Shown: positions 26,447-60,567 of the stretch, piece by piece
Numbering within the stretch: position 1 is the first letter of the stretch
How the letters are laid out: the number at the start of each line of letters is the position of its first letter
Source: an uncultured Eubacteriales bacterium
GTDB lineage: Bacteria; Bacillota; Clostridia; Oscillospirales; Acutalibacteraceae
Assembly (NCBI GenBank): GCA_900315465.1
Contig: OMZF01000101.1
Coordinates: 18,181 to 82,180, forward strand
DNA length: 64,000 bases
Reading direction: 5' to 3'
Program-made: the position numbers and the translations under genes
The notes under the pieces: model-generated
Told to the model about the DNA's origin: nothing
Database searches by the model: none
Seen by the model: only the letters and a program-made list of their open reading frames with translations

Positions 26447-26458
26447 TATAAGATCTCC

Positions 26459-27187: not shown

Positions 27188-27295
27188 AAAACAATTCCTC
27201 CCTGAATTTTGTCTTTATAAGCATAAATATAATTTTATTGTACAACATTTTCCATAATAATACAAGTAAAATATCAAAATTATTGTTCAAAAAAA

Positions 27296-27326
27296 GAAAA
27301 AGCACAGCCGCAAAACGACTGTGCTT
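27296..27326 (-). terminator. rho-independent terminator
   Basis: Read on the minus strand: AGCACAGTCG...CGGCTGTGCT followed by TTTTTCTTTTTT. Confidence 0.6.
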
Positions 27327-27347
27327 AAATTATACTGTTATGACAGA

Positions 27348-27809: not shown

Positions 27810-27881
27810 CCGAACATCTCCTTTCATTAGAGTATTTTTCCACTTGATTATACAATATTCTGAATTACTTTTCAAGAGTTT

Positions 27882-33457: not shown

Positions 33458-34468
33458 ATGGCGGAAAAACTTAAAGGCGGAACAGTAATTTTTTCACAGG
33501 ATATATGCATAAAGTCATCGGCAGGTGTTGCAGGACATAAAGAGGGAGAAGGCCCGCTTGCATCATATTTTGACAGATTGTATAAGGATGATCTTCTCGG
33601 TCAGAAATCATGGGAAAAAGCGGAGAGCAGACTACAGACCGATGTATCATCGCTTGCACTGCAAAAAGCAGGATATAATACAACTGATATTGATGTGATA
33701 CTTGCAGGTGATCTTCTTAATCAGTGTATTTCATCGACATTCGGACTCAGAAGTTTAGGAATACCGTATCTCGGACAATACGGAGCTTGTTCTACAATGG
33801 CACAAGGAATTGCCACAGCGTCATTCCTTTTGGAAAACGGAGGATTTGAAAGGGCGATGGCGGTCACTTCATCACACTTCTGTTCTGCTGAAAGACAATT
33901 CCGGCTTCCGATAGAATACGGAGGTCAGAGAACTCCGACTGCTCAATGGACTGTGACGGGAGCAGGAGCGGCAATTCTTGAAAAGGGAAAAGGTATATGT
34001 CAGGTGAAAGCAGTGACTGTCGGCAGGATAATTGATTATAAAATCAAGGACGCAAATAATATGGGTGCGGCTATGGCACCGGCAGCAGCTGACACACTTG
34101 TAAGATTTTTTGGTGATACAGGAAAAAGACCGACTGATTTTTCTCTTATTCTGACAGGTGATTTAGGATATATCGGTTCAGAGCTTCTGATAAAGATAAT
34201 GCAGGAGGAGGGAATAGATATTAGTTCGGTTCATAATGACTGCGGAAAGCTTATATTTGACAGGGAGCGTCAGGATGTACACGCAGGAGGTTCGGGATGC
34301 GGATGCTGCGGATCGGTTTTTTGTTCATATATAATGGAGCAGTTCAGGCAGAAAAAATTAAATGATATGTTGTTTATAGCTACAGGAGCATTGATGTCAC
34401 CCACATCAGCACAACAGGGTGAAAGTATTCCCTCTATAGCACATCTGATACAATTGAAAGCTGAATAA
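33458..34468 (+). CDS. spoVAD: stage V sporulation protein AD
   Basis: AGDLLNQ, GACST, SSHFCSAERQFRLPIEYGGQ, MAPAAADT, LILTGDLG, HNDCG, AGGSGCGC and ATGALMSPT follow B. subtilis SpoVAD almost block for block, as I remember it. Confidence 0.92.
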   Translation: MAEKLKGGTVIFSQDICIKSSAGVAGHKEGEGPLASYFDRLYKDDLLGQKSWEKAESRLQTDVSSLALQKAGYNTTDIDVILAGDLLNQCISSTFGLRSLGIPYLGQYGACSTMAQGIATASFLLENGGFERAMAVTSSHFCSAERQFRLPIEYGGQRTPTAQWTVTGAGAAILEKGKGICQVKAVTVGRIIDYKIKDANNMGAAMAPAAADTLVRFFGDTGKRPTDFSLILTGDLGYIGSELLIKIMQEEGIDISSVHNDCGKLIFDRERQDVHAGGSGCGCCGSVFCSYIMEQFRQKKLNDMLFIATGALMSPTSAQQGESIPSIAHLIQLKAE

Positions 34469-34497
34469 ACTAATTTTTCACTAAAAAAGAGTATAAA

Positions 34498-34536
34498 ATA
34501 TCCGTAAGGTTGAAAACTTTACGGATATTTATTTTG
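34498..34536 (+). terminator. rho-independent terminator of spoVAD
   Basis: Perfect 11-bp stem AATATCCGTAA (34498-34508) / TTACGGATATT (34519-34529) followed by TATTTT. Confidence 0.7.
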
Positions 34537-34674: not shown

Positions 34675-34704
34675 TTGCAATTCAGTACTAAAATATTGTA
34701 TAAT
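34675..34704 (+). promoter_or_regulatory. candidate sigma-A promoter of the giant-adhesin operon
   Basis: TTGCAA (34675-34680), 18-nt spacer, TATAAT (34699-34704), in an AT-rich 314-nt intergenic region about 80 nt upstream of the ATG. Confidence 0.4.
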
Positions 34705-34782
34705 ATAATGTGATAATATAGTTGAAATTGGGTAAAAATAATAATTTTTCACATTCAATATTATGTGGATGGAGGATAAAAA

Positions 34783-37700
34783 ATGAAAACAGCAATGTAC
34801 AGAAATGACATTTTCAAAAGAATAATATCAGGGTTATTAGCGGTGGTGATATTTTTTAATGCGGCACCGCTGGATCTTTCTGTCTTTGCGGATGATAACA
34901 CTACAATGATGGGGATCTATAATAACTTTATGGTCTCTTCGGCTAATTCCGAGCAGATGACGAAATACACAATAAAATATCTTAGAAAAAAGCAGATGAC
35001 TGATTCATCCGGAAACCCTGTCTACAATTCTGATGGCACCCCGAAATATCAGCCACAGTACGAAAAGGATGAAAACGGAGATATAATTTACATAGATGAA
35101 TATGTAAGGGATGCTGACAATAATATAGTGCTTGATGCAAACGGTGATCCTGTAATTCAAAGAGTACCAAAACCGCTTTTAGTAAATGATGAGATCCAGT
35201 ATGAAATTGAGGATTTTACGAGTTCTGATTTTTTTGAATATAATAATGGAGGTACATATACTTATATCGAAGCAACCGGAACTATAAATATGCATCCCGG
35301 TGAAACTCTGAATTTCTTGTCATCGAATGATTTTAAGGATTTCCTTATAAAAAATAGAATAGAGACCATAGAAGTAACCTATGATCCCGATAATGATGCG
35401 TTTCTTTATGATCCGGATAAAGCAGCAGATGCAGATGATCAGAGTCAGGCATTAGGCAATACTGCAGTAATGACTTACGATGTAAAAATCACAGAAAACC
35501 AGGATACACATGAAAAGAATATTGATGTTTCAGACTGTACAGCTATAACCTTTACATCATCTGACTATATTGATCTTGATGTTACTGTGAAGTGGGTGGA
35601 TGATGGTAATGGAAGACCAGATGTAACAGACTGGGATTTTGATGTAAAACGAAAAGCTTACGCACAAAATGAATCCATACCTGCTTACGATGCCTCTACT
35701 GATTATGATGCAAATTCATCTTATGAAGAAAGCGGAGCATTGGCAGGATATACCGATTATGAAATTGATGTTCCGACTCCTGATACAACAAGCAGTAATA
35801 CGCATATTTTTAATTACAAACTTCCGAGAGCAGCAAAAAACGGAGATACATTTGACTATATTGCAATAAATAATCATAAGAATTTTACTGATTCGGATTA
35901 TCAGGGAGTATCAAACCCGAAAGAATATCGCTATGAAAGAGCAGGAAAAGAAGAATTCAAATATTTCTGCAAAACACAGTTTACATTTGATATTTCATGG
36001 CATGACGATAATAACGCAATAAACAGCCGTCCGGATGTCACGAATGAAAATATCAAGCAATACATAAAAGATCACTTTGTGTTAAAAAACAAAAATACAA
36101 ATGAAACTATCGACCTTGATGATTATACTGTAAGTCTGACACAAAATGATGATGGTACATACAGAGTGACTGTTGACGGACTTGACGAGATAGATGATGG
36201 TTCCGGTTCGGCTGTAACATATTATCTTGAACAGAACTCCGCAGTCATAAAAACAAGTGATAGCAGTTCTTCTGATTATTATGCACTTACCGCACAGAAC
36301 TCAGGCGTACATTCAAGTGAATCTGATAAGATATATAACGGAAGTACAGCTGTATTACTTCTTTCGGGCGAAGATACATTCAGCGGTGAAGTTCAGTGGA
36401 AGGATGAAGCCCGCAAGACAGAAAGAGAATCTAAGAGTAATATAGCTAATTATGTATTGTGGCGTTATGTTGGTACTGATACCGATATGAAAGCACAGGT
36501 AGGTACATTCTCTATAGACGGAAATGCAGATAATTTTTCATATACAGATACAAATGGTGATTCTATCATTATTCCAAAATACGACGTAATGGGTCGTAAA
36601 TATGTTTATTATGCAAAGCAGAGAAGTTTTAAACTTTCCGGTTACGAGCATTCGTACATAGGAGGTACAAGTACCGGTGTTGCCGATAGTTTTTCAAACG
36701 ATGCTGTAATTCAATACAGACTTGCGGGAACTGTAAACTATGCTGTAAATGCCCACTGGATAGCGGCAGCACTTCAGGGCGGTACTGGTGAAGTAAGGTA
36801 TGAACTTCAGAGATATAACTCTGATACAAATTCATGGGAAGATGTTCCGCATGAAAAGACGAATCCGTCACAGTCAACCACCAACAAATCAGAACTTGTA
36901 ATAGATGGTTTTTCGGCTGAACAGACAAGCATCACAGGTGCATTTTATGAAGCTGATGACGATGTTTTGCCGACCAAATATGATGAAAACGGAAGTCTTA
37001 TTATATACCGCATTGTACAGACTTATGCTGACCGTACCGATCAGGGTGTGAGTGGAAATACACCATATGAGACTCTTATATCACTGGTTGTCGATACTGA
37101 AACGGGTGCATTTGAGACGGTGACCGTAGATGGTAAAAATTACTTACAGCTTACTAACGGAAGTACCCCACAAGATGCAAATGGTTTTGTTTATATTACT
37201 GTTGATGGTTTGAAATTCAAGGTAAGAGCTTATATTGATGACGGTACTGTAAGATTTGAGTATATTCTTTATGATGAGATTGACGTAGTTGTAAATAAAA
37301 ACTGGTCTGACCCCACAGTAGATAATATTCTGGATATATGGGGGTCAACAGTTAAAAATAAGCTTCAGGTTTTCGATTATTCAACAGGTGCATTTGTTGA
37401 TTGTCAAAACTATAATACGATATATCCACATTTATCCGAAATAATTGATGAATATGGTAACATAAATGTTAAAAGAAACGATATTGGTAAAAATGAAAGA
37501 GACGATGATACATCGTATAATGATGCTGATGATGAACACTATTCTATCAGACTTAAGGATCTTCCGATGTATGATGATCAAGGTCGTTTGAATAAATATC
37601 AGATAGTAGAGACATCAGTAACCAAAAAAAATGGGGAACAAATCCCAAGTAAGAAAGTATATTCATCCTCAACTTACATCCAAAAAGACGTTGATAACAA

Positions 37701-40700
37701 TGAACTTATAGTTTCCAACTCTTTTGTAGGTGACGGTGAGTCTATAAAATTCAAAAAGATATGGCTTGCAGACGGTGAGGAACAATATAAGACAAATATT
37801 GGTATTCAGGCATCTATCCGTGCGATGCCCCGACCTGACACAGATAAGGATACTGACTATGTGTCACCGAATTACAAACAGAGTATATCCGCAGTTGCAA
37901 ATAGGTTAAATAAAAGGAACGGCAAAACTAAAGGTCAGGAAGGGTATATAGATGTAACCGGTTGGGAAGATATAGAAAATACTACTGAGCTTGAGACATG
38001 GATTCTGCAAATGAAGCAGAAGATCTACGACGACTGGAAAGCTGCATATATTGACAATATTTGGGAAAGAGCAGATAAGTATATCGAAAACTCGACTGAT
38101 AAGCGTTACACATGGAAAAACGAACAGTTAAGTAGTAGTATATCATATGATCCTGAAAATTGGATAATAAATGGTTATACTAAAGAAGAAGATGAAATCA
38201 GATACGTCAATGTCGGGAGGTTGGCATGGGATTATATAACAAACAAAGCTAATCTTCCTACACGACCGGAAGATTATAATGATAATACACCTTCGATAAC
38301 TGCTGCAAAAACAAAAAATGAATGGCAACAGATGTCGGGACATAAGTATTTCCCATGGGAAAGCGGTTATGGCGGAATTGATGACATTTTCCCCGAACTT
38401 GATGAAAACAATCCGCAAAGCAGTCAGACAAATGTAACAGATTATCCTTGGCCGGAATATACTGGCAGTGGTTGGTCACGCAATGCAAATAATTTTACCG
38501 ATGTACTTCTTTCTGCAAATACAGAGAATGTAGGAAATAAATTAGACTTCACTTCAACAACTGATTATCCCAATATATCCACGACACAGAAAAATCAGTA
38601 CAGCACTTTTGTAAATAATGTAAAAACAGACAAAAAACTGCTTTCAACAGGTATAACGCTCAAAGAAGATAACACATGGGAAAGTGAGCTTGGAATATAT
38701 CCTGATTATAACAAGGGTACAGGAGACGGTCAGAGTCAGAATAATTATGATCTCCGTGATTTCAGGGAATATCTTGCTCCCGGTCAAAATTCGAATGGTA
38801 CTACGCAAAAAAGTGTTACATCACAGGAATTTATTGCAGTAAAAGATAATAACGGAACAGAAATAGAGCCTGTAAAGACTGCAAGTAATAAATGGGTAGA
38901 GGGTGCGAAAACCACTTATTGGTATCAGGGTGATGATCAGAGTCAGCAGCAAGCGGCAACGAACAGTACCGATATGCTTAATCAAAATGTCAGCTATATC
39001 AGTAATGGTAAAGACGTTATTGCATATTCATGGCTTGCAGGAGTGCTTAAAGCTACATATGAAGGCGGTTTGACACGTTATTATGCGGTTCAGGAGGTAC
39101 CTCAATATAAAGGTGGTACTCCGACTGATGAAAATCATAATAAGGGAATTTCCGAAATTACCTTTATGAACAACCGCTGTGGTGTTGTCAATTATCATGT
39201 ACAGTTCGACTGGAAAGTCGGTGATATGATAAAGAATGGAACTCTTAAAAAGCTTAAGTTAAAGTTGCAGGCTGATTATGGCAGCGGCTACACTGATTTA
39301 ATTATTGATAATAATCCTTATTTTGAAATTACCATTACAGAAGATCTTACTGACTATTATATTTATAATCTTCCTAAATACACAAATCTCGGTAACCTTA
39401 TCACTTACAGAATTTCGGAATACAGTATAAATGATGATATAGTATTTAATAATGATGTAAGTGATACCGTAAGGTTTGAAAAAGATGGTACAACATATCA
39501 GGTTGAAAGAGAAGATCTTGCTACACAATTTAATACTTCTTCAAACAGTGATGACTGTTACAATGTAAAATTTACCAACAGTCTTTCGGGTACTACACAA
39601 ACAACAGTTTATAAGGCATGGATAGATGACAGCAACGATCAGGGTACAGGCAGAAGACCTGAACTTTATATCCGTCTGTATCATCAGAGTGTATCCGATT
39701 TGAATGGAGTAACAACCATAAAACAGCCATTTGCACGTGCAGATCTCGGTAAGGACTATCTCTGGGAAGGAAGTAATTATACAGATATATGGACATATAC
39801 TTATCAGAATCTTGATAAATATGACGATGACGGTTATCCTTACACTTATTATGTAGAAGAGTTTCCCGGTGACTTGGCAGCGTATGATTATGTCACACAT
39901 TATTATAAAGGTCATATCGACAATGATGATTATGTTAATGTCAGCGGCAAGGTCATAAGGGAAATTACCGGTCTGAAGAATGTTTCTAATGAAAACGTAA
40001 ACGGTATTGATTCTCTTGCAATGGATGGTGACACTATTGTAAACAAGAGAAAAAAGGAAATTAACATACAAGGTACAAAAGTATGGCAGAATATTGCCGA
40101 AAGTTTGCAGAAGAAGAATTATCCGATAGCTGATATTTTCCTTTACAAGACAACAAAGCAGGCGAATATTACTACAGCTGAAAATGTTTATGCTGTTCCT
40201 ATGGGTCAGCTTGCAGGCAAAAAGTTGTATATAAGCCTCGATGGTCTTCCTGATAAGGACGAGGATAATAATTCGTATGTTTATCAGGTATTTGAGTGTA
40301 ATGCAAACGGCGATAATGAAACAAGTATTGAATTCAATAAAACAGGTGATGTTATTGAGTTCTCAAAGGATAATACAGGCAGTGTATTTTATTTCAAAAT
40401 AAAGAGAACCAAAACTACAAATAGTGATCCATCAACCACAACGACAGAATTGATAAAGGCGGAATCTGTAAGTACATATGTTGAATCCTCTGACGGTCAG
40501 TATAGTCTTATAGAGTATAATGAAGATGATGAAAATAAGAATAAGACCGAGCTTATCAATATCACCCAGATATTCAAAGGTGATGCTACTTTCGGTTTTG
40601 GCAGAGAGGGTACACTTAAAAAGAATAACAATGAAGTGCAGTATACAAGTCATGGAAATGCACTTTTTGATTATGTTGACGGTCAGAATGAAAAAGGATT

Positions 40701-55700: not shown

Positions 55701-58014
55701 GATTCCCGGATACGAAATACAGCTTACCTTTGAAACAGGCTGGGATGATCCGCATATTTACTTCCTTGATGAAAATGATATGCCGATATTACAGCCTAAT
55801 CCGGGTTATCTGTTGGAAAAAGCAAATCCGTCAGATTTGTATTATACTATCCGCACACCTGTAAATGCAGCAAAGTTTGTGCTGAATAATGGCATAAACA
55901 AAGGTTCTTATTCAAAGACCTCAACAGCAACAGAAATTATTGCAGATGCTGATGGTCTGGCAAAATATACTGTTCCGTCAACTGGTGAGTCAGGTAAATA
56001 TGTTCTCACTTCAACAAGTGTTCCCACACCCGTTGTACAGAAATTTGCAGCCGAGAAAAAAGCAACTGACATTCACATAGCAACAGTAGTAACAGGTGAT
56101 GACGGTCAGACTGAAAAGATCACATGGCTTAAACCTGAGGCAGGACATGAATCAGAAAATCCTCAGACAACAGTAGATTCAGACTATATTGGCAATCCTG
56201 TCGGAGATATTAACAATTCTGCTGTGAAAAAAGTTAAAATTGTCAAGTGGGGAGTGTATTATTGGCTTGAAAAATCTGCTCCGAAGGGTTATAATAAGGA
56301 TAGAGAAATATCAGAGCCGTTTGTAGTAGATGCTGAAGAAGCAGATAAGGTAATAAATATCGACAAAGCCATAGATACACGCCAAAAGGGCAAGGTTGAG
56401 CTTACAAAGAAATCCGAGCAGAAATTAGGAAGTGCTGATATAGGAGCTGTACTTTCGGGTGCAGAGTTTGAACTGTATAAAAAGGGTACAACTGATGTTC
56501 GACAGTATCTCCTGAAAAAGAGCAGTAATGAATACTTAGTTGTTGTTGCAGAAACTGGCAAGAGTGAGATTCAGGGTTCAGCAGGAAGTGAGTATCTGAA
56601 TGTTACAGATGCGGATTTGAAGAATACACTTACTACTGCCGGATACGAAGTTAATGGCGACAATAATGACAGTCACTTTAAACTGTATACTGTAGCCACA
56701 ACAGCCGCCACAACAGGAAAATTCCTTATCGAAGGCATTGACTGGGGACAGTATTACCTTAAGGAAACAAAAGCACCTGATAATTACACAAATATTGATT
56801 CTTCCACAAATCAGCCGAACAAGGTAGAATTTTCAGTCGGCAGGAATAATTGTGGTGATGTAAAACAGGAGCTTGTCTGCACAGACGAAATTGAATCTGC
56901 AAAGATACAGATAACAAAGACAATCAACGAATACATTGACGCATGGGGAACACCGACATTCATTTTCAAAATCAAGGGAATGAACGACGAACATAGTGCA
57001 TACACAGACTATGAAAGAACAGTTAGCTTACAGGTTACATCTAAAGATAATAAGTTCTCGACAGATGAAATAAAGGTAGAGCCCGGTGTGTATGAAGTAA
57101 GCGAAATAAATGTATCGAGATATTCTGTATTGAGCTGTTCGATTGATACTACAAATTCAGTTCAGACGTATACAGATTATAGCACTGAAAATTCCGGAAA
57201 GGCAGTATTTAAGGTGGAGAAGAACGGAAAAGTAGTAGTTGACTTTGAAAATACCATTGACTACTATGACAAGTTCACACATACCAATCTGCAAAGGAAT
57301 GACTTCCATGGTTATAAGGGAATAAAGGTAGTTTATAATCAGCTTATTGACCTTGACGATACTGATTCTTTAGCAAATAATAAAACAACTACCATCGAAA
57401 AGAAAAATCTCACAGGTTATCTTATTCCGTCAGGCGGTGGAAATTATGTTCCTATGACTACTGAGCAGCTTGAACAGCTTAGTTTCACCTATACTAATCC
57501 CGGAGAAGATGATGCAAGGTTCGGAACTTCGTTCAAAGATAACACAGATGCTAAGACTATCACTGTGAATAATTCACAGATAGTATCAGCAGGATGTTCG
57601 TATGTTGTTAAGGCGACGTATGGCGGTCTCACAACAGACCTCACTCTGAACTTTAAAGAACGTACACATCCCACAAAAATAACAAAAACTGTTATCTTTA
57701 AAGCAGACAGCGGTAATTATTCATACTTTGAAGATGAAAATGAAAGAACGTCAGAGTATGTATATGTGTACACAATAGACAGTAGTACACAGACCGTATT
57801 AAGCATAACCCACAACGGTAAGCCGGTAAAAGAGGCAGATGTCAAGATTCCGCCATCGGATTATATTAATGTGAATGAAGCTTATAGAAGTTCAAAAACA
57901 TTTAGTATTTGGGAAAGTGATAATCAATCTTATGATTTGAGTAGTTTCGATTTATGGAAGGGTCTCTCCGGAGATGATACGATAACCTTTACCGCAACAC
58001 TTGTCGACAGCTAA
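34783..58014 (+). CDS. giant (7,743 aa) secreted multi-domain surface/adhesin-like protein: Cna-B-like and SpaA-like Ig-fold repeats, no recognisable anchor
   Basis: Uninterrupted 23,232-nt ORF. RBS GGAGG 34771-34775. Signal peptide aa 1-36 (SVFA/DD). By eye about 30 starts of the type [VI]x[VIF]xKxWxDxxNxxxxRP, each with YxYx[VI]xE and [FVI]TNxL ends (Cna-B signature). C-terminal GxYxLxExxAPxGY segments (SpaA-like). No LPXTG or terminal TM helix. Confidence 0.9.
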   Translation: MKTAMYRNDIFKRIISGLLAVVIFFNAAPLDLSVFADDNTTMMGIYNNFMVSSANSEQMTKYTIKYLRKKQMTDSSGNPVYNSDGTPKYQPQYEKDENGDIIYIDEYVRDADNNIVLDANGDPVIQRVPKPLLVNDEIQYEIEDFTSSDFFEYNNGGTYTYIEATGTINMHPGETLNFLSSNDFKDFLIKNRIETIEVTYDPDNDAFLYDPDKAADADDQSQALGNTAVMTYDVKITENQDTHEKNIDVSDCTAITFTSSDYIDLDVTVKWVDDGNGRPDVTDWDFDVKRKAYAQNESIPAYDASTDYDANSSYEESGALAGYTDYEIDVPTPDTTSSNTHIFNYKLPRAAKNGDTFDYIAINNHKNFTDSDYQGVSNPKEYRYERAGKEEFKYFCKTQFTFDISWHDDNNAINSRPDVTNENIKQYIKDHFVLKNKNTNETIDLDDYTVSLTQNDDGTYRVTVDGLDEIDDGSGSAVTYYLEQNSAVIKTSDSSSSDYYALTAQNSGVHSSESDKIYNGSTAVLLLSGEDTFSGEVQWKDEARKTERESKSNIANYVLWRYVGTDTDMKAQVGTFSIDGNADNFSYTDTNGDSIIIPKYDVMGRKYVYYAKQRSFKLSGYEHSYIGGTSTGVADSFSNDAVIQYRLAGTVNYAVNAHWIAAALQGGTGEVRYELQRYNSDTNSWEDVPHEKTNPSQSTTNKSELVIDGFSAEQTSITGAFYEADDDVLPTKYDENGSLIIYRIVQTYADRTDQGVSGNTPYETLISLVVDTETGAFETVTVDGKNYLQLTNGSTPQDANGFVYITVDGLKFKVRAYIDDGTVRFEYILYDEIDVVVNKNWSDPTVDNILDIWGSTVKNKLQVFDYSTGAFVDCQNYNTIYPHLSEIIDEYGNINVKRNDIGKNERDDDTSYNDADDEHYSIRLKDLPMYDDQGRLNKYQIVETSVTKKNGEQIPSKKVYSSSTYIQKDVDNNELIVSNSFVGDGESIKFKKIWLADGEEQYKTNIGIQASIRAMPRPDTDKDTDYVSPNYKQSISAVANRLNKRNGKTKGQEGYIDVTGWEDIENTTELETWILQMKQKIYDDWKAAYIDNIWERADKYIENSTDKRYTWKNEQLSSSISYDPENWIINGYTKEEDEIRYVNVGRLAWDYITNKANLPTRPEDYNDNTPSITAAKTKNEWQQMSGHKYFPWESGYGGIDDIFPELDENNPQSSQTNVTDYPWPEYTGSGWSRNANNFTDVLLSANTENVGNKLDFTSTTDYPNISTTQKNQYSTFVNNVKTDKKLLSTGITLKEDNTWESELGIYPDYNKGTGDGQSQNNYDLRDFREYLAPGQNSNGTTQKSVTSQEFIAVKDNNGTEIEPVKTASNKWVEGAKTTYWYQGDDQSQQQAATNSTDMLNQNVSYISNGKDVIAYSWLAGVLKATYEGGLTRYYAVQEVPQYKGGTPTDENHNKGISEITFMNNRCGVVNYHVQFDWKVGDMIKNGTLKKLKLKLQADYGSGYTDLIIDNNPYFEITITEDLTDYYIYNLPKYTNLGNLITYRISEYSINDDIVFNNDVSDTVRFEKDGTTYQVEREDLATQFNTSSNSDDCYNVKFTNSLSGTTQTTVYKAWIDDSNDQGTGRRPELYIRLYHQSVSDLNGVTTIKQPFARADLGKDYLWEGSNYTDIWTYTYQNLDKYDDDGYPYTYYVEEFPGDLAAYDYVTHYYKGHIDNDDYVNVSGKVIREITGLKNVSNENVNGIDSLAMDGDTIVNKRKKEINIQGTKVWQNIAESLQKKNYPIADIFLYKTTKQANITTAENVYAVPMGQLAGKKLYISLDGLPDKDEDNNSYVYQVFECNANGDNETSIEFNKTGDVIEFSKDNTGSVFYFKIKRTKTTNSDPSTTTTELIKAESVSTYVESSDGQYSLIEYNEDDENKNKTELINITQIFKGDATFGFGREGTLKKNNNEVQYTSHGNALFDYVDGQNEKGLYLPKYDERGALIKYSMRERAINGYTFHISDQTIINDYTGGDKVKIKFHKDWKNMVEDTANAYPKLVITLHQAYIGKDSSNDIQLKDYKTYSKVFYPNSERAKSFEAIFGDTEDLRKYAPDGNEFYYYITERMIDAEHTPGDSLSSDYYCDFQNTYIVAKKNGNSYINTQNNQALDTQNYKKVYPSENDIKIYNDKNDTVMGEYCVFKKTESDGGLEKHSGMGFICTIEEVIPKVTHYKDVDGNLSNVVIADNKYYDSNNPDGIELSTDTLINQYLSGKSVDYHDEDVIVTNRYQPDIENFQGHITVDKSWNNRDSQAENSKNSEFEEISNYKFTLKRKTMKVKEKSLFQIVTGGYYSNRPNVPRIVIGAGLTDGVFQISYNDANDKLVTEWVDENGQHYIKYVDDSNQTVTEILAENAEAPKHPKFYPYGYDDKKLQNYDEAILTEADYKYYACKMVLKKNAYGDIEIPVQVRVYPSSEDRRVEIYGLAIYAQDGVPYTYIIEEVAASAYEASPLRATRQMVVDHASTENTTGYAPVNSLYTVPVDYVQRGKLFLRIEDLPKKDGSNNSYTYSVEECDQNGASLAKQSINLHYENKENNKVALELSKEYADDYSRKLYFKIKRTAGNTTEYLDDASKKAIVYDRYGSDSFALTNILKTFDLRLNKVFGRWYTDSNNQKKYEVITSEDYSQFFNQKYIDSLRFQIQRKLTTDSQWEPYDYRMMSSQSGKTSADAGVISGSQLIYDSGNGTYYFKFIDLPLYKPGSSLLEEDKVYEYRIVEFNEAELDVNVNAKDPATTLSAFYLKVGRKTTEGNTEPEYLTTGFTAKIPGGSDLTVTNGVISVPNPASSNAKIAIEGLDFSDVNGKSYIYEAVQCDSNGDVTSPETIDISGVRLGVWKSQDTEHVEMHYPQYQNDINNVASQTSPYTKHETSQTIKGTTQNVYVRNIFESKSITLDKYWDDDNNADGLRPESLQIRIYENVPNSGNNGAEFLPSTNPVVINKTLKSSEEWHKIVALPMYYYNGKAPIADLTYSIREKTLDAVVTNNGYVHTDYGYKKKENDNVTRVSLAGKETANAPFKLPGADGTDTQPLYGVSSETAVTPIKISDDDFVGLYLENTKTRVNSVLTFTKDWDDDKYKADYRPDNVYVKILRNTKNTATIDDSNMFVVDGLVKDEDTNIIIRNLAENYDYQVLICTSTGSLIETITPTVTTADGVTECSFTTKVTAENQKLYFRLRQKTTNSNSYTVVNKDINGSRLVAIVDKSNISQSDVVKADNQNNPVGIVINSTSYNAAGGVYTIPAGNAANGYNTVVIQNLLKKSGNDVYNYSLVDENGNALNGTNPSLTLYQNVDNPNNYNAMIVYNGTDEFKFKLKQRLGDAQATDVGDSAKRFISADQTTGVVELPVDKNTDKADYYFENLSYGTNASGNTQINGTWSPYYYTVVECDRNGNDITAVMSDTNTPKNETTDSKINVSKKIKFTISGLESIAESKTYINLKITRNGGSATDQIVVYDVNNRPVHITLQETVNGTDQTVNNEYYASVGSVVSNGIIVVPIPSNGSNITGYIEDLPVGYEYNGTWSEYTYNIVRCKANGDNHGTPVTVTPYPLKCEYEYEPLYTDLTFTKTWDSSASDYKLRPSEVYFKLYRTYDGATGADADELVTTFGDNTALTAKINDAVHNISPENGYFTLPVSSDSLTVSFEGLPNGKVVADGHGNGIWKEYKYYIKEVDSNNTDLASTSPYEWEQKKGVEKPFNITKVSNYYTKATLSEGIENSIIKTEHKLEKTWFDEDNTYDIRKNYVVTLQRREGDHGNWQNVDLSGTEITAKEKSDGTPVSLNAEGTNHELLNLTKDKLYAVVSNLPKYSSSGNEYTYRFIEASIGGNDVKGNNASLEENYLFHIPGRNGAETSYVTQWHTGTKDYSVDYDYNTTATSKVTNSVVTNAVSFVSVSANLNWVDEWNLYGKRPESVTYKLWRTKTTITDTGKNDSDGNKIYYRSEPVIDGDFKNYVTVDESEAKDWKHEWSTCAAFDDKGNEYDYFVDIYLNNQDEVIPYYESSGTSNIGYDEHGHIAKKYVFTETYNPPRKSITVSKKWNDQENIFGYRPNDITVNLSCKYEVTEEIYTEKQNDNTVKAYYIKEGDKYYYSGPLSGLYSIVNNDTYTAYSEGSTKTLTSNDSWAYKSFDGLPAWVNPTGTARTNGEYVRVTYYLTENCPANYTCTTADPILLIDTGMRYDSKSADVNNQGIITIPVNSYFKDGNNVKAMIPHLSEKDSYGNTYVYTITEVDSEGNAVSSSDMSATKNEKYDISHDNEIAYDISKPISIESPPDNIYVKVTRAHKVSETKTCTINNTNTITPSETCSVVNSQVVMVQVPKDTSTILTFDVANLPAQNNGHNLTYSAELVDYEGNVQPQDDVTYTSSVTDSITFSVTKSNISTDTTRPEHLFFKIKSNCSYTETETVKKDFSNQDLKAVVFKEEPDVTKVTNTDNPVLLEVPENRSYTFENTLITRDVVVVRNWNDNDYASEKGAAQQTILNDMHYNQKVVLTSDDFGSAVTGRQITEGAYTGFQYSESRVIGSSENAVVFKNLPKFKADGKTEISYKLFMDKTTDAESTGTDVYTDTLPTENGTKITNIADSYRFGTPSANGSKEYGYDSDCYVNQGDTLTKYTIINELPLTAVDVIKTWDDRSNIFKLRPAVPVAHKDSNNKVTTVDPDPLGMTLTTTTTPSIDNSWAAPQSYILKDSVPTDNNNDTWTYSYQKLLKYNKNNQHYYFKADEHFIEQYVNETAKVGDTSYTATDNLYTVPEKDVQNTYCVVFENLPTKDDFGRSYTYIAERCKSDGTAADTQNLTVTTTDTNTVISGTADTNPDNNSEYLYFKLKRRSSHLMDYNDPSYTKHNFSQISEVEVANHIYDGVHALSTQLTLTNALDTRTVTVKKDWYDNDYDSTLASDLHYDLDITLSSPTLECTDNDKKDNSGKYKETIKLTKGNTTGVTFTGLPKYDASGDVIVYNVREDANPKNTSPAADRAAVNITKKTEVTNYDLETAPKFTDGDRHYGYVGSAVYTAENEGTKNYLSQVDITNTLPLTAVKVVKHWDDFSNKYSIRPSSIDLKLTAKTTNDGSTWVDPANDSGNHYLSKTSMTTPTIYTSAGDDWTYTYTKLLKYDVKNLPYSFKVEETFTSPATSVTGYTAPKYCRPSENDNNRQTVTGDALDTLSSGSTWDGNTALSTPMELTNSLDTRDIIVTKTWADNGYTGTDTHYNVKVTLDADNDLTIKEKTIGATVDDLACNVDAATGLITVNVPANTTKSVVIGGLPKKDESGADYTYTVVQCNNIGAQTGTLTPTINHSGDYNVITVSVNNSEAQASDCYIKVKRNTTETVRRIPDNTANAYTDSQIISSRAGSGYSVVFKDVPKYKSDGTAYIFKLTETPSDAVADASTIGQTSGSTVVNSHEFTVSATRFGYTGTCKKKTSGTGNKAYVEQYDITNTLPVYAFNADVEWDDDNNRDGKRPTSDNLSVILSRRIGTGTKSTVATVSTKSDADNKWNYTLTGAVPKYSESNVLYIYSISENDFTNYGSYTRKYSKSITMVASGLPTNNSAESGTNEVSDMNTTTTDTVATFHIKNEYIPEKGSITINKTWAGETLEGHDYRSVARPNDLTVTLKRKYQGENDTVTEETVGTYNGSWTKNDDTWSLTIENLYLNTNPTADKVTNGASKVYTYYFEETVPGGYTVTYSQTQNTGVNLVKDGTVYMGATNTLNKKKVKFYKEWDDSNYSDRDHIHYDVTADIKLNGTVVKNVTIPNGNTTGVEVELPENIGGTATSYTLTETNIKYNYNPTYKVGNSGSYDATATFNTSDNSVTIKNSLPLVRFIVHKDWDDDSNRDNKRPESLTFTLTQNGNLIKSDITTSPGGWTSDYTPYYLVYDKNNAKYTYSITENDFANKSTDYAGSPMSTVISAPVISGNLTEYTYTFTNKKVTTYKGDLQANKKWDGDETHKEYTRPANVTVQLWCSYNGGEPIYAANADYVKSFVGSEYVFEQTLNSDNIWSYTFKDLPLYMNDGGTDSVHPETNGEQNNGTFYQITYYIMEKDTNTGGLTGYDTSYSNTGAITKTTYSYNDVGVQLENGDDKSINVINTLKTTSVTVNKAWSNNSCPETLAEDRYNVNISVTSTDIASYNQTKLTTNNTVTFDGLPLYKSDGTAAEYKIEELTTTPENPHKYNFTPSYSVTNGQFKPTATHQITVTNTLPITEIVITKNWLDKFENLDYSSFRQTVNFEIQRRTDGTNWETLPEVYTASIPESKDNANNKWTYTISNLLKYDVNNKPYMFKIKELPVNGYERTSPADTDTITETAAADSHSFAFTNRLYTRDITVNKKWDDSGYTPQSGENLHYDIDITLSKDAVDNVNPAISYTGKINAGTTYDSTQVVSGGSVIFKNVPVFDKSGAVIEYTVSESPCRANESAEVTTPYGYYLVSGYPTSTNTTVNSQSCISTYTFQNKLPVVNIPVTKTWNVDTKYHTYQKSNVTVQLKRESTNESQKQVDEKAIELSNGTNDSYTFSNQLKYDAEYNAYTYSVTETKLEGFNVSYSPQNVTSTDNSLALGVTNTMITGDAEVRKIDKYIFNVDNGVEIPVSDAYFELYQKDSSNNNVYVNVRLLSESDDDVGENKTYPASYVGYYVIDNRTGASNHYVKSGSDGYIKFKDLPLNNYYLKECEGSNDTPLPTGFVLNTEEYHFTVGVENAAATASTTSYYTGDNNGTPYGFIVSKDNQNRIGNEENVPQVVIGIQKVDAEDNTKTLQGASYLVLRMKHFENRTTGETSEDDFIANAKKSVEESGRIYSEDKAIAKYWNKIGSGITDSEGKFIINNKLDGTDIIFGTYAFLEVQAPIGYECTYDRNYPRTDSYEGNDLYVEVSATQMTPPVIVHENPRKSTQLDILKTDEFGDPLNGAEFELYYRSTKTKEIKTYSYDYKANGTIATPSVSGVQAIQPRTDPDYIYKDNYINGNRWIPGYEIQLTFETGWDDPHIYFLDENDMPILQPNPGYLLEKANPSDLYYTIRTPVNAAKFVLNNGINKGSYSKTSTATEIIADADGLAKYTVPSTGESGKYVLTSTSVPTPVVQKFAAEKKATDIHIATVVTGDDGQTEKITWLKPEAGHESENPQTTVDSDYIGNPVGDINNSAVKKVKIVKWGVYYWLEKSAPKGYNKDREISEPFVVDAEEADKVINIDKAIDTRQKGKVELTKKSEQKLGSADIGAVLSGAEFELYKKGTTDVRQYLLKKSSNEYLVVVAETGKSEIQGSAGSEYLNVTDADLKNTLTTAGYEVNGDNNDSHFKLYTVATTAATTGKFLIEGIDWGQYYLKETKAPDNYTNIDSSTNQPNKVEFSVGRNNCGDVKQELVCTDEIESAKIQITKTINEYIDAWGTPTFIFKIKGMNDEHSAYTDYERTVSLQVTSKDNKFSTDEIKVEPGVYEVSEINVSRYSVLSCSIDTTNSVQTYTDYSTENSGKAVFKVEKNGKVVVDFENTIDYYDKFTHTNLQRNDFHGYKGIKVVYNQLIDLDDTDSLANNKTTTIEKKNLTGYLIPSGGGNYVPMTTEQLEQLSFTYTNPGEDDARFGTSFKDNTDAKTITVNNSQIVSAGCSYVVKATYGGLTTDLTLNFKERTHPTKITKTVIFKADSGNYSYFEDENERTSEYVYVYTIDSSTQTVLSITHNGKPVKEADVKIPPSDYINVNEAYRSSKTFSIWESDNQSYDLSSFDLWKGLSGDDTITFTATLVDS
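40183..50823 (+). repeat. 11 dispersed copies (protein level) of an unclassified 80-105 aa module inside the giant ORF
   Basis: Consensus: [GN]xY[TA][VI]P - x8-12 - [ED][DN]LPxKD - x3-5 - YxYx[VI]x[EQR]C[DNK]xNG - x25-45 - [LF]YFK[IL]KR. Copies start at 40183, 42316, 43213, 44191, 44581, 44893, 45343, 47425, 47788, 49087 and 50572. Confidence 0.7.
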
Positions 58015-58020
58015 ATAATA

Positions 58021-58068
58021 CATTTGTCATTCTGAGATGCAGTTATATGCTCTCAGAATGACGAAATG
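58021..58068 (+). promoter_or_regulatory. intercistronic stem-loop without a T-run (possible attenuator, processing or stabiliser element)
   Basis: CATTTGTCATTCTGAGA (58021-58037) pairs with TCTCAGAATGACGAAATG (58051-58068), with one bulge. It starts 7 nt after the giant ORF stop, and no U-tract follows. Confidence 0.6.
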
Positions 58069-58111
58069 TTATCCATGATTACTCAGTAAGAAGAAAGGAG
58101 AGTAAACATAA

Positions 58112-58918
58112 ATGAATACTAATATAAAAGAGGTAAAAAAGAAGAAACGCTCTCCTGCACTTCTTACAACGATATTGTTGTTGTTTTTGCTTATAGTTAT
58201 ACTTGTCACACTTGCGTTTTTCACATCGTTTGATGAAGTGACCAATGCATTCACAGGAGCGAGGATAGATATAATCCTGACCGAGCCGAAATGGAAACCG
58301 AATGATGCACTTAATATCGTACCCGATACAACACTTGACAAAGACCCGTATGTAACAAACAACGAAAACATTCCTACATATGTTTTTCTCAAGGTTACAG
58401 TACCGGCTGTGAAGTATAAGTATGATCAGAGTAGTGGTGCTACTCAGGGAAGTATGGCTTATGACGGAACATCTGCTTACGTTCCGATTTATAAGTTTAT
58501 AAATTCTGATGGTACAAATAACGAAGAAACTGATATTTCAAAAACAAATCAGAAAGTCAATGATGGTTGGAAACTGGTTTCATTTACTTCTCCAAGTACA
58601 GAACAAAATCCAAGACTTATTAATGGTGATGATTCAACAAAGGCAGCATATGAATATGTTTATTACTATTATGGCAGTTCTGCTGCAACCACAATAACCG
58701 CACTTGACCCACATACCCAAACAACAAAGCCCTTGTTTGATAAGGTACATTTGCTCAACTTCCGAAATTATGAAGCTACTACAAATCCATATAGCATTAA
58801 TCGTGATTACAGTATTACAGTTGAGGCATACGGTATACAGGCGAATTATCTTTCAGACGGCAATGGCACATTGACTACTAACGACCCTGAGAAAATATGG
58901 GAAATATTAAACAGCTGA
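58112..58918 (+). CDS. TasA/CalY/camelysin-like secreted protein with SipW-type signal-peptide motif (paralog 1)
   Basis: Basic N-terminus, TM helix, then AFFTSFDEVTNAFTGARIDIILTE. Later PTYVFLKVTVP, YEYVYYYYG, PLFDKVHLLNF and ITVEAYGIQAN follow the TasA-family strand pattern. RBS GGAG. Confidence 0.7.
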   Translation: MNTNIKEVKKKKRSPALLTTILLLFLLIVILVTLAFFTSFDEVTNAFTGARIDIILTEPKWKPNDALNIVPDTTLDKDPYVTNNENIPTYVFLKVTVPAVKYKYDQSSGATQGSMAYDGTSAYVPIYKFINSDGTNNEETDISKTNQKVNDGWKLVSFTSPSTEQNPRLINGDDSTKAAYEYVYYYYGSSAATTITALDPHTQTTKPLFDKVHLLNFRNYEATTNPYSINRDYSITVEAYGIQANYLSDGNGTLTTNDPEKIWEILNS

Positions 58919-58932
58919 AAGTGAGATGAACA

Positions 58933-59700
58933 ATGATGAAAAAGAAAAAGCAATTTTTTCGTGGCGTAATTATAGGCACAGCACTTATTGTTCTTCTGGC
59001 TGCAAGTTTAACAACATCATATCTTACTGACAGGGAAATAGCGTATAATATTGTTACCATCGGAAATGTTGAGGTAACTATTGACGAAACTCCTTTTGAC
59101 CCGACAAGCAGTTATCCGGCAGATGCAGGGACTGTTATCGGAAAAGCTCCTAAGCTTAAAAATGAAGGAACTACTGACGAGTATGTATTCATTAAAGTTT
59201 CAGTTCCGAAGAAGGAAGTTACTTTTTTGGATGAAACCACAGGAAAAAAAGATGGAAATACTAATCCAAGAACAGGTGAGATATTCAAACTTCTGACAAA
59301 TGATACAGGTACAAAGTTGACACAAGATATTAATAATACTGCTCTTACAGACGTAACTTTTTATTATCACAAAGGTGATAATAGTAACAGTGTTGACGGT
59401 TGGTATTTAGTTTATACTACCGCAGCAACGGTTAATTCTGTTGATTATAACGTCTACACTTTCGGTTACAATAAAAAATTGAAACCAGGGGATTCAACCA
59501 AAACTCTTTTTGACAAGATACAGTTAAAGAGTATTATTGACACGGAAGTAAAGGGAGATGTGTCAATCCAAGTCGGAGCGTATGCAATACAATCTGATGA
59601 ACTGAATCTTCCAGGGATTGAGAATGATTACGAGGGACATTTGTCTACTACAAATGTAGAAACAATATACAACATCGTAAAGAATAAAGGTGGGGTGTGA
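58933..59700 (+). CDS. TasA/CalY/camelysin-like secreted protein (paralog 2)
   Basis: TM helix, then TTSYLTDREIAYNIVTIGNVEVTIDE. GKAPKLKNEGTTDEYVFIKVSVP, TLFDKIQL and IQVGAYAIQSD. Confidence 0.7.
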   Translation: MMKKKKQFFRGVIIGTALIVLLAASLTTSYLTDREIAYNIVTIGNVEVTIDETPFDPTSSYPADAGTVIGKAPKLKNEGTTDEYVFIKVSVPKKEVTFLDETTGKKDGNTNPRTGEIFKLLTNDTGTKLTQDINNTALTDVTFYYHKGDNSNSVDGWYLVYTTAATVNSVDYNVYTFGYNKKLKPGDSTKTLFDKIQLKSIIDTEVKGDVSIQVGAYAIQSDELNLPGIENDYEGHLSTTNVETIYNIVKNKGGV

Positions 59701-59706
59701 TGTGAG

Positions 59707-60351
59707 ATGAAAAAGAAAATCATATTTGTTCTGAGCATCACAGTACCATTGATGATATTGCTTACGATTGGAATAACTATTGCATATCTGAGTAACAAAC
59801 CTGATGATGTTACAAATACCGTCAGCGTTACGGAGGGTAAAGTAAGTATAGAAGAATCATTTCCCGTAGTTTCCGAGCAGTCGATGAATAATGAATTTAC
59901 AAAAGAAGTTCAGATAAAAAACACAGGTACAACACCGTGTTTTGTGCGTGTGTTTGTTGATTTTTCGGATAGTACAATCCGTGATAATTCTAAAACTAAG
60001 ATTGTAAAAGCAGATGGAACTACTCAAGTAACTTGGAGTGAATTCATTGAGAATCCAGGAACAAATTGGGAGTATGTTTCAAATGACAATGATAAGCTCA
60101 ACGGATATTTCTATTATAAAAAAATATTAAATGTAGGGGGATCGACTGATTACCTGTTGAGAAAAGTTTTTGTAGATTACAGAGCAAATGATGAAGACAG
60201 CAATATCGACAAGATAACTGATTTTGAAATGATAGTGTATGCAGAAACTGTTCAGACAACTGAAATTACTACGGATGGAACGTCTAAAGTATATACTGAT
60301 TCAGATTGGAAAACCGCTTGGGAAAGTTTCCTTAAAATACCTACACCATAA
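59707..60351 (+). CDS. TasA/CalY/camelysin-like secreted protein (paralog 3)
   Basis: TM helix, then IAYLSNKPDDVTNTVSVTEGKVSIEE. KEVQIKNTGTTPCFVRVFVDF, YFYYKKIL and EMIVYAETVQT. RBS GGTGGGG. Confidence 0.7.
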   Translation: MKKKIIFVLSITVPLMILLTIGITIAYLSNKPDDVTNTVSVTEGKVSIEESFPVVSEQSMNNEFTKEVQIKNTGTTPCFVRVFVDFSDSTIRDNSKTKIVKADGTTQVTWSEFIENPGTNWEYVSNDNDKLNGYFYYKKILNVGGSTDYLLRKVFVDYRANDEDSNIDKITDFEMIVYAETVQTTEITTDGTSKVYTDSDWKTAWESFLKIPTP

Positions 60352-60360
60352 AAACAACAA

Positions 60361-60408
60361 AAAACCGCAGCCGTTGCTTTTAAAAGCAATAGTTGCGGTT
60401 TTTTTATT
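60361..60408 (+). terminator. rho-independent terminator ending the giant-adhesin/TasA-like unit
   Basis: AAAACCGCAGCCGTTGCTTTT / AAAAGCAATAGTTGCGGTTTT long stem with an internal mismatch loop, followed by a T-run. Confidence 0.75.
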
Positions 60409-60421
60409 TATTCGGTTTTGT

Positions 60422-60567
60422 AAAGATTCTTCGTCGCTACGCTCCTCAGAATGACATTTTTTTGAATAGCAAAGTAAAGCCGCCCAAATGTCATCCTGAG
60501 CGAAGCGAAGGATCTTTTAAATAAAGTAGTTATTCTGGAAAGATTCCTCACTGTGTTCGGAATGACA
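60422..60567. repeat. three copies of a ~30-bp REP-like element in alternating orientation
   Basis: AAAGATTCTTCGTCGCTACGCTCCTCAGAATGACA (60422-60456). TGTCATCCTGAGCGAAGCGAAGGATCTTT (60489-60517, opposite orientation). AAAGATTCCTCACTGTGTTCGGAATGACA (60539-60567). Confidence 0.8.

Follow-up and report, generated by a model that had tools for sequence, protein, structure and literature searches.

The 64-kb stretch of DNA analysed here (the window) contains a four-gene locus which, on the reading we favour with a probability of roughly 0.55, supplies the subunits of a surface fibre of the BsaA/TasA type together with a giant passenger protein that is displayed on the fibre through a donor-strand-like segment. 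The argument is built on the absence of a recognised wall anchor from the giant, the family relationships of the three small proteins (T1, T2 and T3) encoded after it, the recurrence of the pairing in related genomes and a short conserved segment near the C-terminus of the giant.

Organization of the locus

All features described here lie on the forward (+) strand. The left boundary of the locus is a terminator-like hairpin (34496–34530; a 16-pair stem followed by a T-run) that ends spoVAD, the upstream neighbour of the giant gene, named by Pfam and NCBIfam. A candidate sigma-70-like promoter (TTGCAA-18-TATAAT, 34675–34704; 10 of 12 matches in a consensus scan) precedes the giant ORF (34783–58014), which encodes 7,743 amino acids (∼869 kDa). 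It is followed by T1 (58112–58918, 268 residues), T2 (58933–59700, 255 residues) and T3 (59707–60351, 214 residues). The preliminary description of this DNA had reported four same-strand ORFs with gaps of 97, 14 and 6 nt, followed by a T-run terminator, and both hold. The intrinsic terminator closing the unit is visible in the sequence as a hairpin with a T-run at ∼60362–60410 and was not picked up by the consensus scanner. F-ENA endospore appendages, a candidate identity with spoVAD next door, were ruled out, since their proteins form a separate family (DUF4183).

The gap between the giant gene and T1 holds a stem-loop (58015–58072; arms GTCATTCTGAG and CTCAGAATGAC) with a folding energy of −33.4 kcal/mol (z −7.1) and no U-tract; it may act in processing, stabilisation or attenuation. 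Its arm sequence is found again at 60445–60500. We infer that the giant gene and T1–T3 are co-transcribed in the window. In 11 of 19 relatives the corresponding giant-to-T1 gap measures −1 to 37 nt, which fits an operon.

An anchor-less stalk protein

The giant begins with a signal peptide (residues 1–36; 34783–34890) that reads ...SVFA followed by DD, with the cleavage site placed by inspection; it is of the Sec type and not of the SipW-cognate type. The stalk consists of ∼42 divergent Cna-B-like domains (residues 251–6564; 35533–54474), counted with an HMM built iteratively from the giant itself; the earlier figure of about 30 was an undercount. SpaA-like, prealbumin-fold domains follow in three stretches (54475–57261). 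Cna_B (E 3e-75 and 4e-24) and SpaA (E 3.6e-13) are the sole Pfam families matched by the whole protein, as had been anticipated. The Cna-B array is interrupted at about residues 966–1460 by a non-repeat insert that has no sequence match in the PDB (searched with residues ∼960–1466), and in the piece of the protein holding it Pfam reports no family other than Cna_B. The N-terminal 260 residues likewise gave no match in a PDB sequence search.

In characterised homologues, internal isopeptide bonds stabilise the Cna-B and SpaA domains. In the last SpaA-like domain (residues ∼7379–7490), conserved Lys, Glu and Asn positions are arranged as expected for such a bond: alignment A3 has K40 and E102 invariant and N151 nearly so (90% or more). 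The giant gene contains no tandem repeats at the DNA level, so its domain copies must be old. It was also found on seven independently assembled contigs, and the two observations together rule out an assembly artefact or a recent repeat expansion.

The general view is that large Cna-B/SpaA adhesins in Gram-positive bacteria need sortases. The preliminary description had found neither an anchor on the giant nor a sortase gene in the window, and both absences were borne out. The giant's C-terminus has no LPXTG-like motif, nowhere in the protein do hydrophobic or small residues (AILMFVWGCST) continue for 16 positions or more, and SLH, LysM and choline-binding families were not matched in Pfam. 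T1–T3 also lack an LPXTG-type sorting signal (motif, hydrophobic segment and basic tail), and among ∼45 related giants none carries a sorting signal. The sortase TLxTC motif occurs in no frame of the window, and tblastn with 49 SipW-like proteins found no SipW in the window (best E 0.21). The window ORFs scanned are housekeeping genes; those at 24717–27875 were covered solely by the tblastn and motif checks.

T1–T3 resemble TasA/BsaA fibre subunits

T1–T3 are paralogs (BLASTP E 3e-13 and 3e-5). Their N-termini share a Lys-rich stretch and a hydrophobic helix followed by the motif A-[YF]-[LF]-[ST]-x-x-D-x-x-x-N. A match to Peptidase_M73, the historical family name of TasA-like proteins, had been expected, and none of the three has any Pfam match. 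T3 matches the BsaA family model TIGR04090 with 41.6 bits (E 1.2e-10) against a curated cut-off of 60, T1 matches it with an E of 0.094, and T2 gave no match to it. The SipW-cognate signal peptide model TIGR04088 scores T1 at 17.8 bits (E 0.0027) against a cut-off of 19. The TIGR04090 cut-off is passed in relatives by an extra BsaA-like gene (64.8 bits in L028 and 88 bits in L020). PF12389 is present in P0020 and in neighbours of L011 and L094, and the T1 ortholog of L094 has a weak Peptidase_M73 match.

A predicted structure of T3 (AF2, mean pLDDT 78.9) was judged to be a TasA-like β-sandwich (jellyroll) with an N-terminal donor strand; the donor segment lies ahead of the domain at a pLDDT below 50. 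The best Foldseek match of this model, and the sole one at E ≤ 1e-3, is the TasA fibre 8AUR (probability 0.97, though with a low TM-score of 0.30). The archaeal bundling pilus 7UEG ranks 19th (E 0.028, probability 0.28). The T3 family profile gave three chance-level matches against PDB sequences (E 0.38 or worse).

An Asn-Glu-Lys triad is invariant among the three paralogs (N45, E58 and K77 in T1; N39, E52 and K71 in T2; N37, E50 and K66 in T3, as candidate positions) and 95–100% conserved in their families (48, 64 and 73 members). By its motif context the triad appears to correspond to N35-E56-K74 of BsaA from C. perfringens, through which donor-strand-exchanged subunits are locked by an Asn-Lys isopeptide bond (PMC11580942). 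The preliminary description had proposed a TasA/camelysin-type identity. All matches of T1–T3 fall below the NCBIfam cut-offs and Peptidase_M73 is absent; it is the combination of the TIGR04090 match, the TasA-fibre fold match and the SipW-type peptidases encoded beside homologous trios (see below), and not a family threshold, that places the three proteins in the TasA/BsaA family as divergent paralogs.

Giant and trio are linked in related genomes

A scan of reference genomes yielded 80 loci, 53 of which have enough flanking sequence to be informative. A giant Cna-B-type ORF adjoins TasA-like genes in ∼40 of these 53 (∼75%), a co-occurrence that the preliminary description had raised as a point to be checked, and the flanks, gene orders and orientations vary among loci. 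The related giants span 2,000 to 7,700 residues, some with a starch-binding CBM26. A reciprocal look-up of giant P0026 returned T1-T2-T3 followed by two S26 peptidases. Across related loci, 49 ORFs encoding SipW/archaeal-type peptidases adjoin homologous trios, and TIGR02228 scores such peptidases at 85–109 bits (cut-off 51.85). With ∼40 of 53 loci paired and no sorting signal on any of the ∼45 giants, a functional link between giant and trio is supported. The recurrence of the pairing in dozens of related genomes suggests a fibre that needs no sortase and on which the giant is displayed.

The linkage is not strict. Conservation of the trio without the giant had been named beforehand as evidence against the link, and it does occur in the closest relatives, where L009, L010 and L014 have spoVAD-T1-T2-T3 at the same syntenic site; conversely, the giant homolog of L095 has no adjacent trio. 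From these loci it follows that the giant is an accessory partner of the trio and not an obligate one. The same loci would suit a rather doubtful alternative, namely that the genes are clustered through a common adhesion and biofilm programme and co-regulated while their products are physically independent, the giant being an adhesin for matrix or substrate that is secreted or loosely attached, and T1–T3 a separate biofilm scaffold. Class-B giants are often encoded on the opposite strand, the strong hairpin in the giant-to-T1 gap could split transcripts, and the evidence for physical contact is a weak motif similarity. Against this alternative, adjacency survives rearranged orders and different flanks in three quarters of the informative loci, all linked giants share one family-specific module with its segment (described below), and an 869-kDa protein without an anchor must be retained somehow if it is to serve as a cell adhesin.

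The preliminary description had cast TasA-like proteins as partners instead of sortases, in a pairing it believed undescribed. The former applies to the window and is too strong for the wider family, in which 12 of the 80 related loci encode a sortase (PF04203). A strictly sortase-independent family is ruled out by these sortases and by class-B loci in which a TasA-like subunit carries an xPKTGD or LPATG sorting signal. The claim of novelty is weakened by a 2024–25 preprint, which noted that BsaA/TasA-family genes often share a putative operon with genes for LPxTG and SpaA-domain proteins, signal peptidases and sortases (Kivimaki et al., PMC11580942).

The sortase genes in related loci, and the family name Peptidase_M73, lend some appeal to a further view, in which a sortase encoded at a distance recognises the giant by a non-canonical signal, or T1–T3 process it as proteases of the camelysin type or as chaperones. 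We consider this highly improbable. A hydrophobic and basic C-terminal tail is found on no giant; where sortases occur, the sorting signal is on the TasA-like subunit and not on the giant; and the M73 'peptidase' label is itself considered a likely misidentification (PMC11580942).

A conserved segment in the C-terminal module

The most conserved stretch of the giant's C-terminal module is the segment YYDKFTHTNLQRNDFHGYK (residues 7494–7512; 57262–57318). It has the motif YDKFSH-x5-N-x-F with an invariant Asn at residue 7506 and may mimic the donor strand of a pilin. It occurs once in every class-A giant and as a recognisable variant in class-B giants, and is internal, ∼250 residues from the C-terminus. 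When the module was aligned with T1 (hhalign), only the segment aligned (15 columns, E 0.0074, probability 5%), and the T1 region aligned to it is exactly the T1 donor strand. A scoring matrix made from T1 donors, with scores of at most 12.7 bits, ranks the segment first in 6 of 15 giants, which are homologous to each other so that these ranks are not independent observations; in the window's giant it ranks only 78th of 7,724 positions. A donor-only HMM run over the giant failed to find it. The resemblance is therefore weak in absolute terms, and the segment may at most be called a putative donor-strand mimic. The AF2 model of the module shows no regular secondary structure up to its residue 26 (residue 7510 of the giant), with 10-residue pLDDT means of 47 and 50 over residues 7485–7504 and 82 over residues 7505–7514. 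The donor segment of T3 is modelled in a similar way, at low confidence in front of its domain.

The segment is followed by two Ig-like β-sandwich domains (residues ∼7513–7743; 57319–58011), modelled at a mean pLDDT of 85.7. A word-indexed homolog search with the last 404 residues returned one irrelevant SpaA protein; an exhaustive HMMER search showed the module to be family-specific, with 26 representatives in 1.84 billion proteins, and these served to build the alignment for the AF2 model. Foldseek returned generic Ig or S-layer-domain matches to the two domains (best E 1.7e-3) and no TasA match. Since hhalign aligned nothing beyond the 15-residue segment and Foldseek found no TasA structure, the domains were rejected as TasA-like acceptors; they also have no conserved Glu where the spacing would call for one.

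A conserved and confidently folded terminal module could instead be an anchor in its own right, binding the wall, the S-layer or a secondary polymer non-covalently without any involvement of the TasA-like genes. The S-layer proteins Sap, SbsC and SbsB indeed provide its best structural matches, through their Ig-like domains (E from 1.7e-3 to 0.02). These matches are weak and generic to the Ig fold, and they concern lattice domains that are not known as anchoring modules; SLH, LysM, CWB2 and GW profiles are unmatched. Class-B giants carry the homologous region internally and continue into different C-termini, and self-anchoring would leave the conserved linkage to pilin genes unexplained. We regard it as improbable.

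Proposed assembly and its implications

In the favoured model, that of a giant passenger on a T-subunit fibre, T1–T3 would be exported with SipW-type signal peptides, and the SipW gene must then lie elsewhere in the source genome. Donor-strand exchange would join them into a polymer in which each subunit's β-sandwich is completed by the N-terminal strand of its neighbour, and each joint would then be locked by an intermolecular Asn-Lys isopeptide bond with Glu as the catalyst, the mechanism established for BsaA of C. perfringens. The analysis itself establishes the gene content, the family relationships, the conserved triad and the conserved linkage; polymerisation, its polarity and attachment of the giant through the segment belong to the model. 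The giant would be exported by Sec, with its Cna-B and SpaA domains as a long stalk, and, having no wall anchor of its own, would be displayed on the fibre. The most likely route is insertion of the mostly unstructured residues 7494–7512, with Asn 7506, into a T subunit in the manner of a donor strand. Its place may be that of initiator and tip, as proposed for TapA, which would give TasA its first donor strand (PMC9674648), and for TafC, the tip donor of haloarchaeal tafi (PMC11821415). A more specific version, in which the giant is grafted covalently and without a sortase by a spontaneous isopeptide bond between Asn 7506 of the inserted segment and the acceptor Lys of the subunit, is put forward as a tentative and rather unlikely possibility.

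The clade is one of rumen Clostridia in which anchor-less giants are paired with TasA/BsaA-type subunits bearing an isopeptide 'lock' triad. If the giant rides on the fibre, TasA-like fibres would extend from matrix scaffolds to adhesive pili with tip adhesins, a second, sortase-independent route of covalent surface display would exist, and particle attachment by fibre-degrading rumen bacteria would gain a testable model. If the covalent graft is also true, the result would be a self-locking donor-strand pilus tipped by an 869-kDa adhesin, and with it a modular, enzyme-free display system, common to many rumen Oscillospiraceae and Lachnospiraceae and with interchangeable giant 'heads', some bearing CBM26. 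An Asn-Lys lock between different proteins could also find use in protein ligation. If the genes are merely neighbours, the locus is a useful catalogue entry and nothing further.

Comparison with known systems

The closest parallel to the trio is the sipW-bsaA-bsaB-bsaC operon of C. perfringens (PMC11580942, PMC7395162), which also contains tandem TasA-like paralogs. The likeness extends to the T3 match to the BsaA model, the Asn-Glu-Lys triad, subunits without LPXTG and SipW-type peptidases, found here in related loci. The similarity of T1–T3 to BsaA is below the family cut-off, and the triad is present in all three paralogs whereas it is missing in BsaB. The bsa operon has sipW and the vWA-domain protein BsaC, neither of which is found in the window; T1–T3 are instead partnered by a Cna-B protein of 7,743 residues that lacks an anchor and ends in a module specific to its family.

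The tapA-sipW-tasA operon of B. subtilis (PMC9674648) produces a donor-strand-exchange fibre of TasA-fold subunits, as is proposed for T1–T3. TapA, like the giant in the proposed model, is an accessory, sub-stoichiometric component encoded first in its operon, with a segment resembling the subunit donor strand. TapA is small and has its mimic at the mature N-terminus, whereas the candidate mimic of the giant is internal and close to the other end; TasA lacks the isopeptide triad whose residues T1–T3 possess, and sipW is adjacent to tasA but not to T1–T3.

With sortase-assembled pili and MSCRAMMs such as SpaA, Cna and SdrD, the giant shares Cna_B and SpaA domains, conserved residues of the isopeptide type and a long stalk holding the adhesin far from the cell. 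It differs in having no LPXTG, no sortase in the window and no polymerisation based on a pilin motif; in class-B loci the likely client of the sortase is a TasA-like base subunit and not the giant.

Haloarchaeal tat-fimbriae are built from the tip donor TafC, the adapter TafE, the shaft subunit TafA and the anchor TafF (PMC11821415). Like archaeal threads, bundling pili and chaperone-usher pili, they are heteropolymeric donor-strand fibres in which roles are split over paralogous subunits. Export in these systems takes other paths (by Tat, or through a chaperone and usher), and they have no giant Cna-B passenger. By analogy, a putative division of tip, adapter, shaft and anchor roles over T1, T2 and T3 can be envisaged.

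A four-gene unit with an anchor-less giant protein

The giant gene (34783–58014, + strand, 7,743 aa) is followed by T1 (58112–58918, 268 aa), T2 (58933–59700, 255 aa) and T3 (59707–60351, 214 aa), the TasA/BsaA-like trio. All four ORFs are co-directional and separated by gaps of 97, 14 and 6 nt, and these ORF coordinates confirm the arrangement reported in the preliminary description. A terminator-like hairpin at the end of the upstream spoVAD (34496–34530) and a promoter-like site (34675–34704) lie 5′ of the giant gene; a hairpin with a T-run at ∼60362–60410 closes the unit, beyond which htpG and ftsK are encoded on the opposite strand. The same gene set is present on seven rumen-type metagenome contigs, each independently assembled. 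No DNA-level tandem repeats were found in the giant gene, which argues that it is real and old. In one assembly of the same species (locus L004), the gene was called as two ORFs of more than 6,416 aa and then 1,192 aa; a strain-level frameshift near aa 6,550, or else an error of assembly there, would account for the split.

Pfam matches in the giant are confined to Cna_B and SpaA. A self-trained HMM counts ∼42 Cna-B-like domains from aa 251 to 6564, revising the ∼30 counted previously by eye, and the array is broken by a non-repeat insert at ∼aa 966–1460 and followed by SpaA-like domains and a C-terminal module. The N-terminus is predicted to be an ordinary Sec signal peptide. Neither an LPXTG-like tail nor a hydrophobic or small-residue run of 16 or more occurs in the giant, and the TLxTC sortase motif is absent from every frame of the window, upholding the view that the protein lacks a sorting signal and the window a sortase. 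When 49 SipW-like proteins of related loci were used as tblastn queries, the window also gave no match to SipW, the S26B-type signal peptidase serving TasA-family proteins (best E 0.21).

The remaining window ORFs scanned have housekeeping functions. Two other unusual proteins are encoded as well: one of 853 aa (9354–11918, − strand) carries a divergent InlB B-repeat (Flg_new_2), and one of 826 aa (1588–4068, + strand) combines several zinc ribbons with a DUF4854 at its C-terminus. Inverted-repeat hairpins formed from one 11-nt arm, GTCATTCTGAG, flank the trio (58026–58062 and 60445–60500). This arm matches the window 6 times, where 1.35 matches would be expected. A REP-like intergenic element is one possible reading; another is a remnant of the way in which the trio or the giant was joined.

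The trio is related to TasA and BsaA

Several independent lines support a relationship of T1–T3 to TasA/BsaA. The three proteins are mutually paralogous (BLASTP E 3e-13 and 3e-5). Their assignment to TasA-family models holds in part: Pfam returned no match and the NCBIfam scores are sub-threshold, with T1 just under the cut-off of the SipW-cognate signal peptide model (17.8 bits, cut-off 19), but T3 matches the BsaA family TIGR04090 at E 1.2e-10 (41.6 bits, cut-off 60), and for its AF2 model (pLDDT 78.9) the TasA fibre 8AUR is the sole Foldseek match at E ≤ 1e-3, with a low TM-score. Pfam Peptidase_M73 is found in some homologs of T1–T3.

C. perfringens BsaA polymerises via donor-strand exchange, in which the N-terminal strand of one subunit completes the β-sandwich of the next, and is locked by an intermolecular isopeptide bond from donor-strand N35 to acceptor K74, catalysed by E56 (Kivimaki et al., PMC11580942). 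An invariant Asn, Glu and Lys are present in T1 (N45/E58/K77), T2 (N39/E52/K71) and T3 (N37/E50/K66), conserved at 95–100% among 48, 64 and 73 family members. Judged by motif context, this triad probably corresponds to BsaA N35/E56/K74. The trio has the fold match and the triad, lies below the curated HMM thresholds and has no adjacent sipW; a divergent branch within the BsaA/TasA superfamily describes it best.

At related loci, one or two signal peptidases that pass TIGR02228, the archaeal/SipW-type model, go with the trio, and there is often an additional BsaA-family protein of 415–772 aa as well; the two tested, from L028 (772 aa) and L020 (599 aa), pass TIGR04090. In the L020 protein (7394–9190), a BsaA-family domain at the N-terminus is joined to a SpaH/EbpB-type pilin-like region, and another SipW-cognate-like stretch occurs at aa 371–396; the protein may be a natural hybrid of a TasA-like protein and a sortase-type pilin.

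Giant and trio are linked in related genomes

Scanning one genome per species for the pattern yielded 80 loci, mostly from MAGs of rumen Ruminococcus, Oscillospiraceae and Lachnospiraceae with a few isolates, in which we called ORFs ourselves and tagged them with phmmer and BLAST. The T genes adjoin a giant Cna-B-type ORF, in most cases of 2,000 to >3,100 aa, in ∼40 of the 53 loci with enough flank to judge (including L058 and L080, read from tagged ORF maps). In class A (17 loci, among them the type closest to the window), the giant is encoded directly upstream on the same strand; in class B (∼23 loci) it lies downstream or between T genes, or is carried by the other strand. The giant-to-T1 gap is −1 to 37 nt in 11 of 19 loci, and a reciprocal look-up from a 4,780-aa giant (P0026) returned T1–T2–T3 followed by two S26 peptidases. 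Flanking genes vary, for example a GH53-dockerin gene at L008, and a C-terminal sorting signal is absent from all ∼45 giants checked. As far as conserved gene neighbourhood goes, the link between giant and trio is real.

The proposed fibre tethering is supported in part by this conservation, but the two partners also occur apart. The closest relatives (L009, L010 and L014) carry spoVAD–T1–T2–T3 with no giant, and the L095 giant has the family's conserved segment, confirmed in its 3,020 aa, yet no adjacent T genes. Since spoVAD lies directly 5′ of the trio in those relatives and 5′ of the giant in the window (33458–34468), the 23-kb gene appears to have been inserted or lost at a fixed site.

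Homologous giants of L095 (4534–13596, 3,020 aa) and L096 (161–6415, 2,084 aa) have matches to the starch-binding CBM26 as well as SpaA domains, a hint that variable parts of such giants may bind plant polysaccharide or starch. A secreted 255–293-aa protein with the N-terminal motif G(S/A)V(K/R)GLPE(R/K)L and no Pfam match recurs at the edge of several clusters (L028 13512–14390, L038 10917–11681, L083 12185–12991).

Class B loci encode a TasA-like protein with a putative sorting signal

Sortase genes (Pfam PF04203) occur in 12 of the 80 loci. In class B, a gene between T2 and T3 encodes a TasA-like protein of 383–444 aa that finishes with xPKTGD or LPATG, then a hydrophobic stretch and a basic tail (L044 7021–8298, L052 8710–10011, L061 8854–10005; also L041, L048 and L059), with a PF04203 gene nearby. 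From its sequence, this protein looks like a sortase-anchored base subunit of a TasA-type fibre. The sortases and this putatively sorted subunit thus suggest that the wider family is a SipW-type donor-strand fibre, wall-anchored in some lineages via a sortase-sorted base subunit. The window version of the locus has neither sortase nor SipW nearby.

A candidate donor-strand mimic in the giant

The final ∼600 aa of the giant are homologous across all linked giants, C-terminal in class A and internal in class B. Of 1.84 billion proteins, a mere 26 representatives have the C-terminal module. Conservation in the ∼600-aa region peaks in a segment that directly follows the final SpaA-like domain, YYDKF[ST]HxDxxxNxFxGxK, located at aa 7494–7512 of the window's giant with the invariant Asn at aa 7506; class-B giants retain YD(K/E)F(S/T)H-x5-N-x-(I/F). 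In profile–profile comparison of the module with the T1 family, only this segment aligns, to the T1 donor strand FTSFDEVTNAFTGAR, and the alignment is weak (E 0.0074, 15 columns, probability 5%). An ungapped scoring matrix of T1 donor strands put the segment above every other position in 6 of the 15 class-A giants and among the best three in nine. For the window giant its rank was 78th of 7,724, and scores were low in absolute terms. A donor-only HMM scan of the giant did not recover it.

The AF2 model of aa 7485–7743 (pLDDT 85.7) has no regular secondary structure up to residue 26 (aa 7510), with mean pLDDT of 47, 50 and 82 in successive 10-residue blocks, followed by two confident Ig-like domains. 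The T3 donor segment is likewise of low confidence in its monomer model. The Ig-like domains gave generic Foldseek matches to S-layer Ig domains (E ≥ 1.7e-3), with no TasA among them, and were rejected as TasA-like.

Comparison with known systems

As an overall explanation we favour a TasA/BsaA-type fibre on which the giant is displayed, with a probability of about 0.55. Any mechanism of tethering is putative, and a covalent donor-strand graft specifically is a tentative and rather unlikely version. The preliminary description overstated the novelty of the pairing, as SpaA-domain, LPxTG, signal-peptidase and sortase genes were already described as neighbours of BsaA/TasA genes (PMC11580942). 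No account of a giant-plus-trio system in Ruminococcus or the rumen, or of giant anchor-less partners, came up in our literature search. The giant has domains in common with sortase-dependent adhesins but not the two features that define them, a sorting signal and a sortase.

TapA is proposed to give TasA its first donor strand (PMC9674648), and haloarchaeal tafi have been modelled in a tip–adapter–shaft–anchor arrangement (PMC11821415). The proposed connection of the giant resembles both the TapA proposal and the tafi model. By these likenesses we infer, with modest support, that the giant would be a donor-only initiator and tip of a TasA-like fibre, possibly locked covalently via Asn7506.
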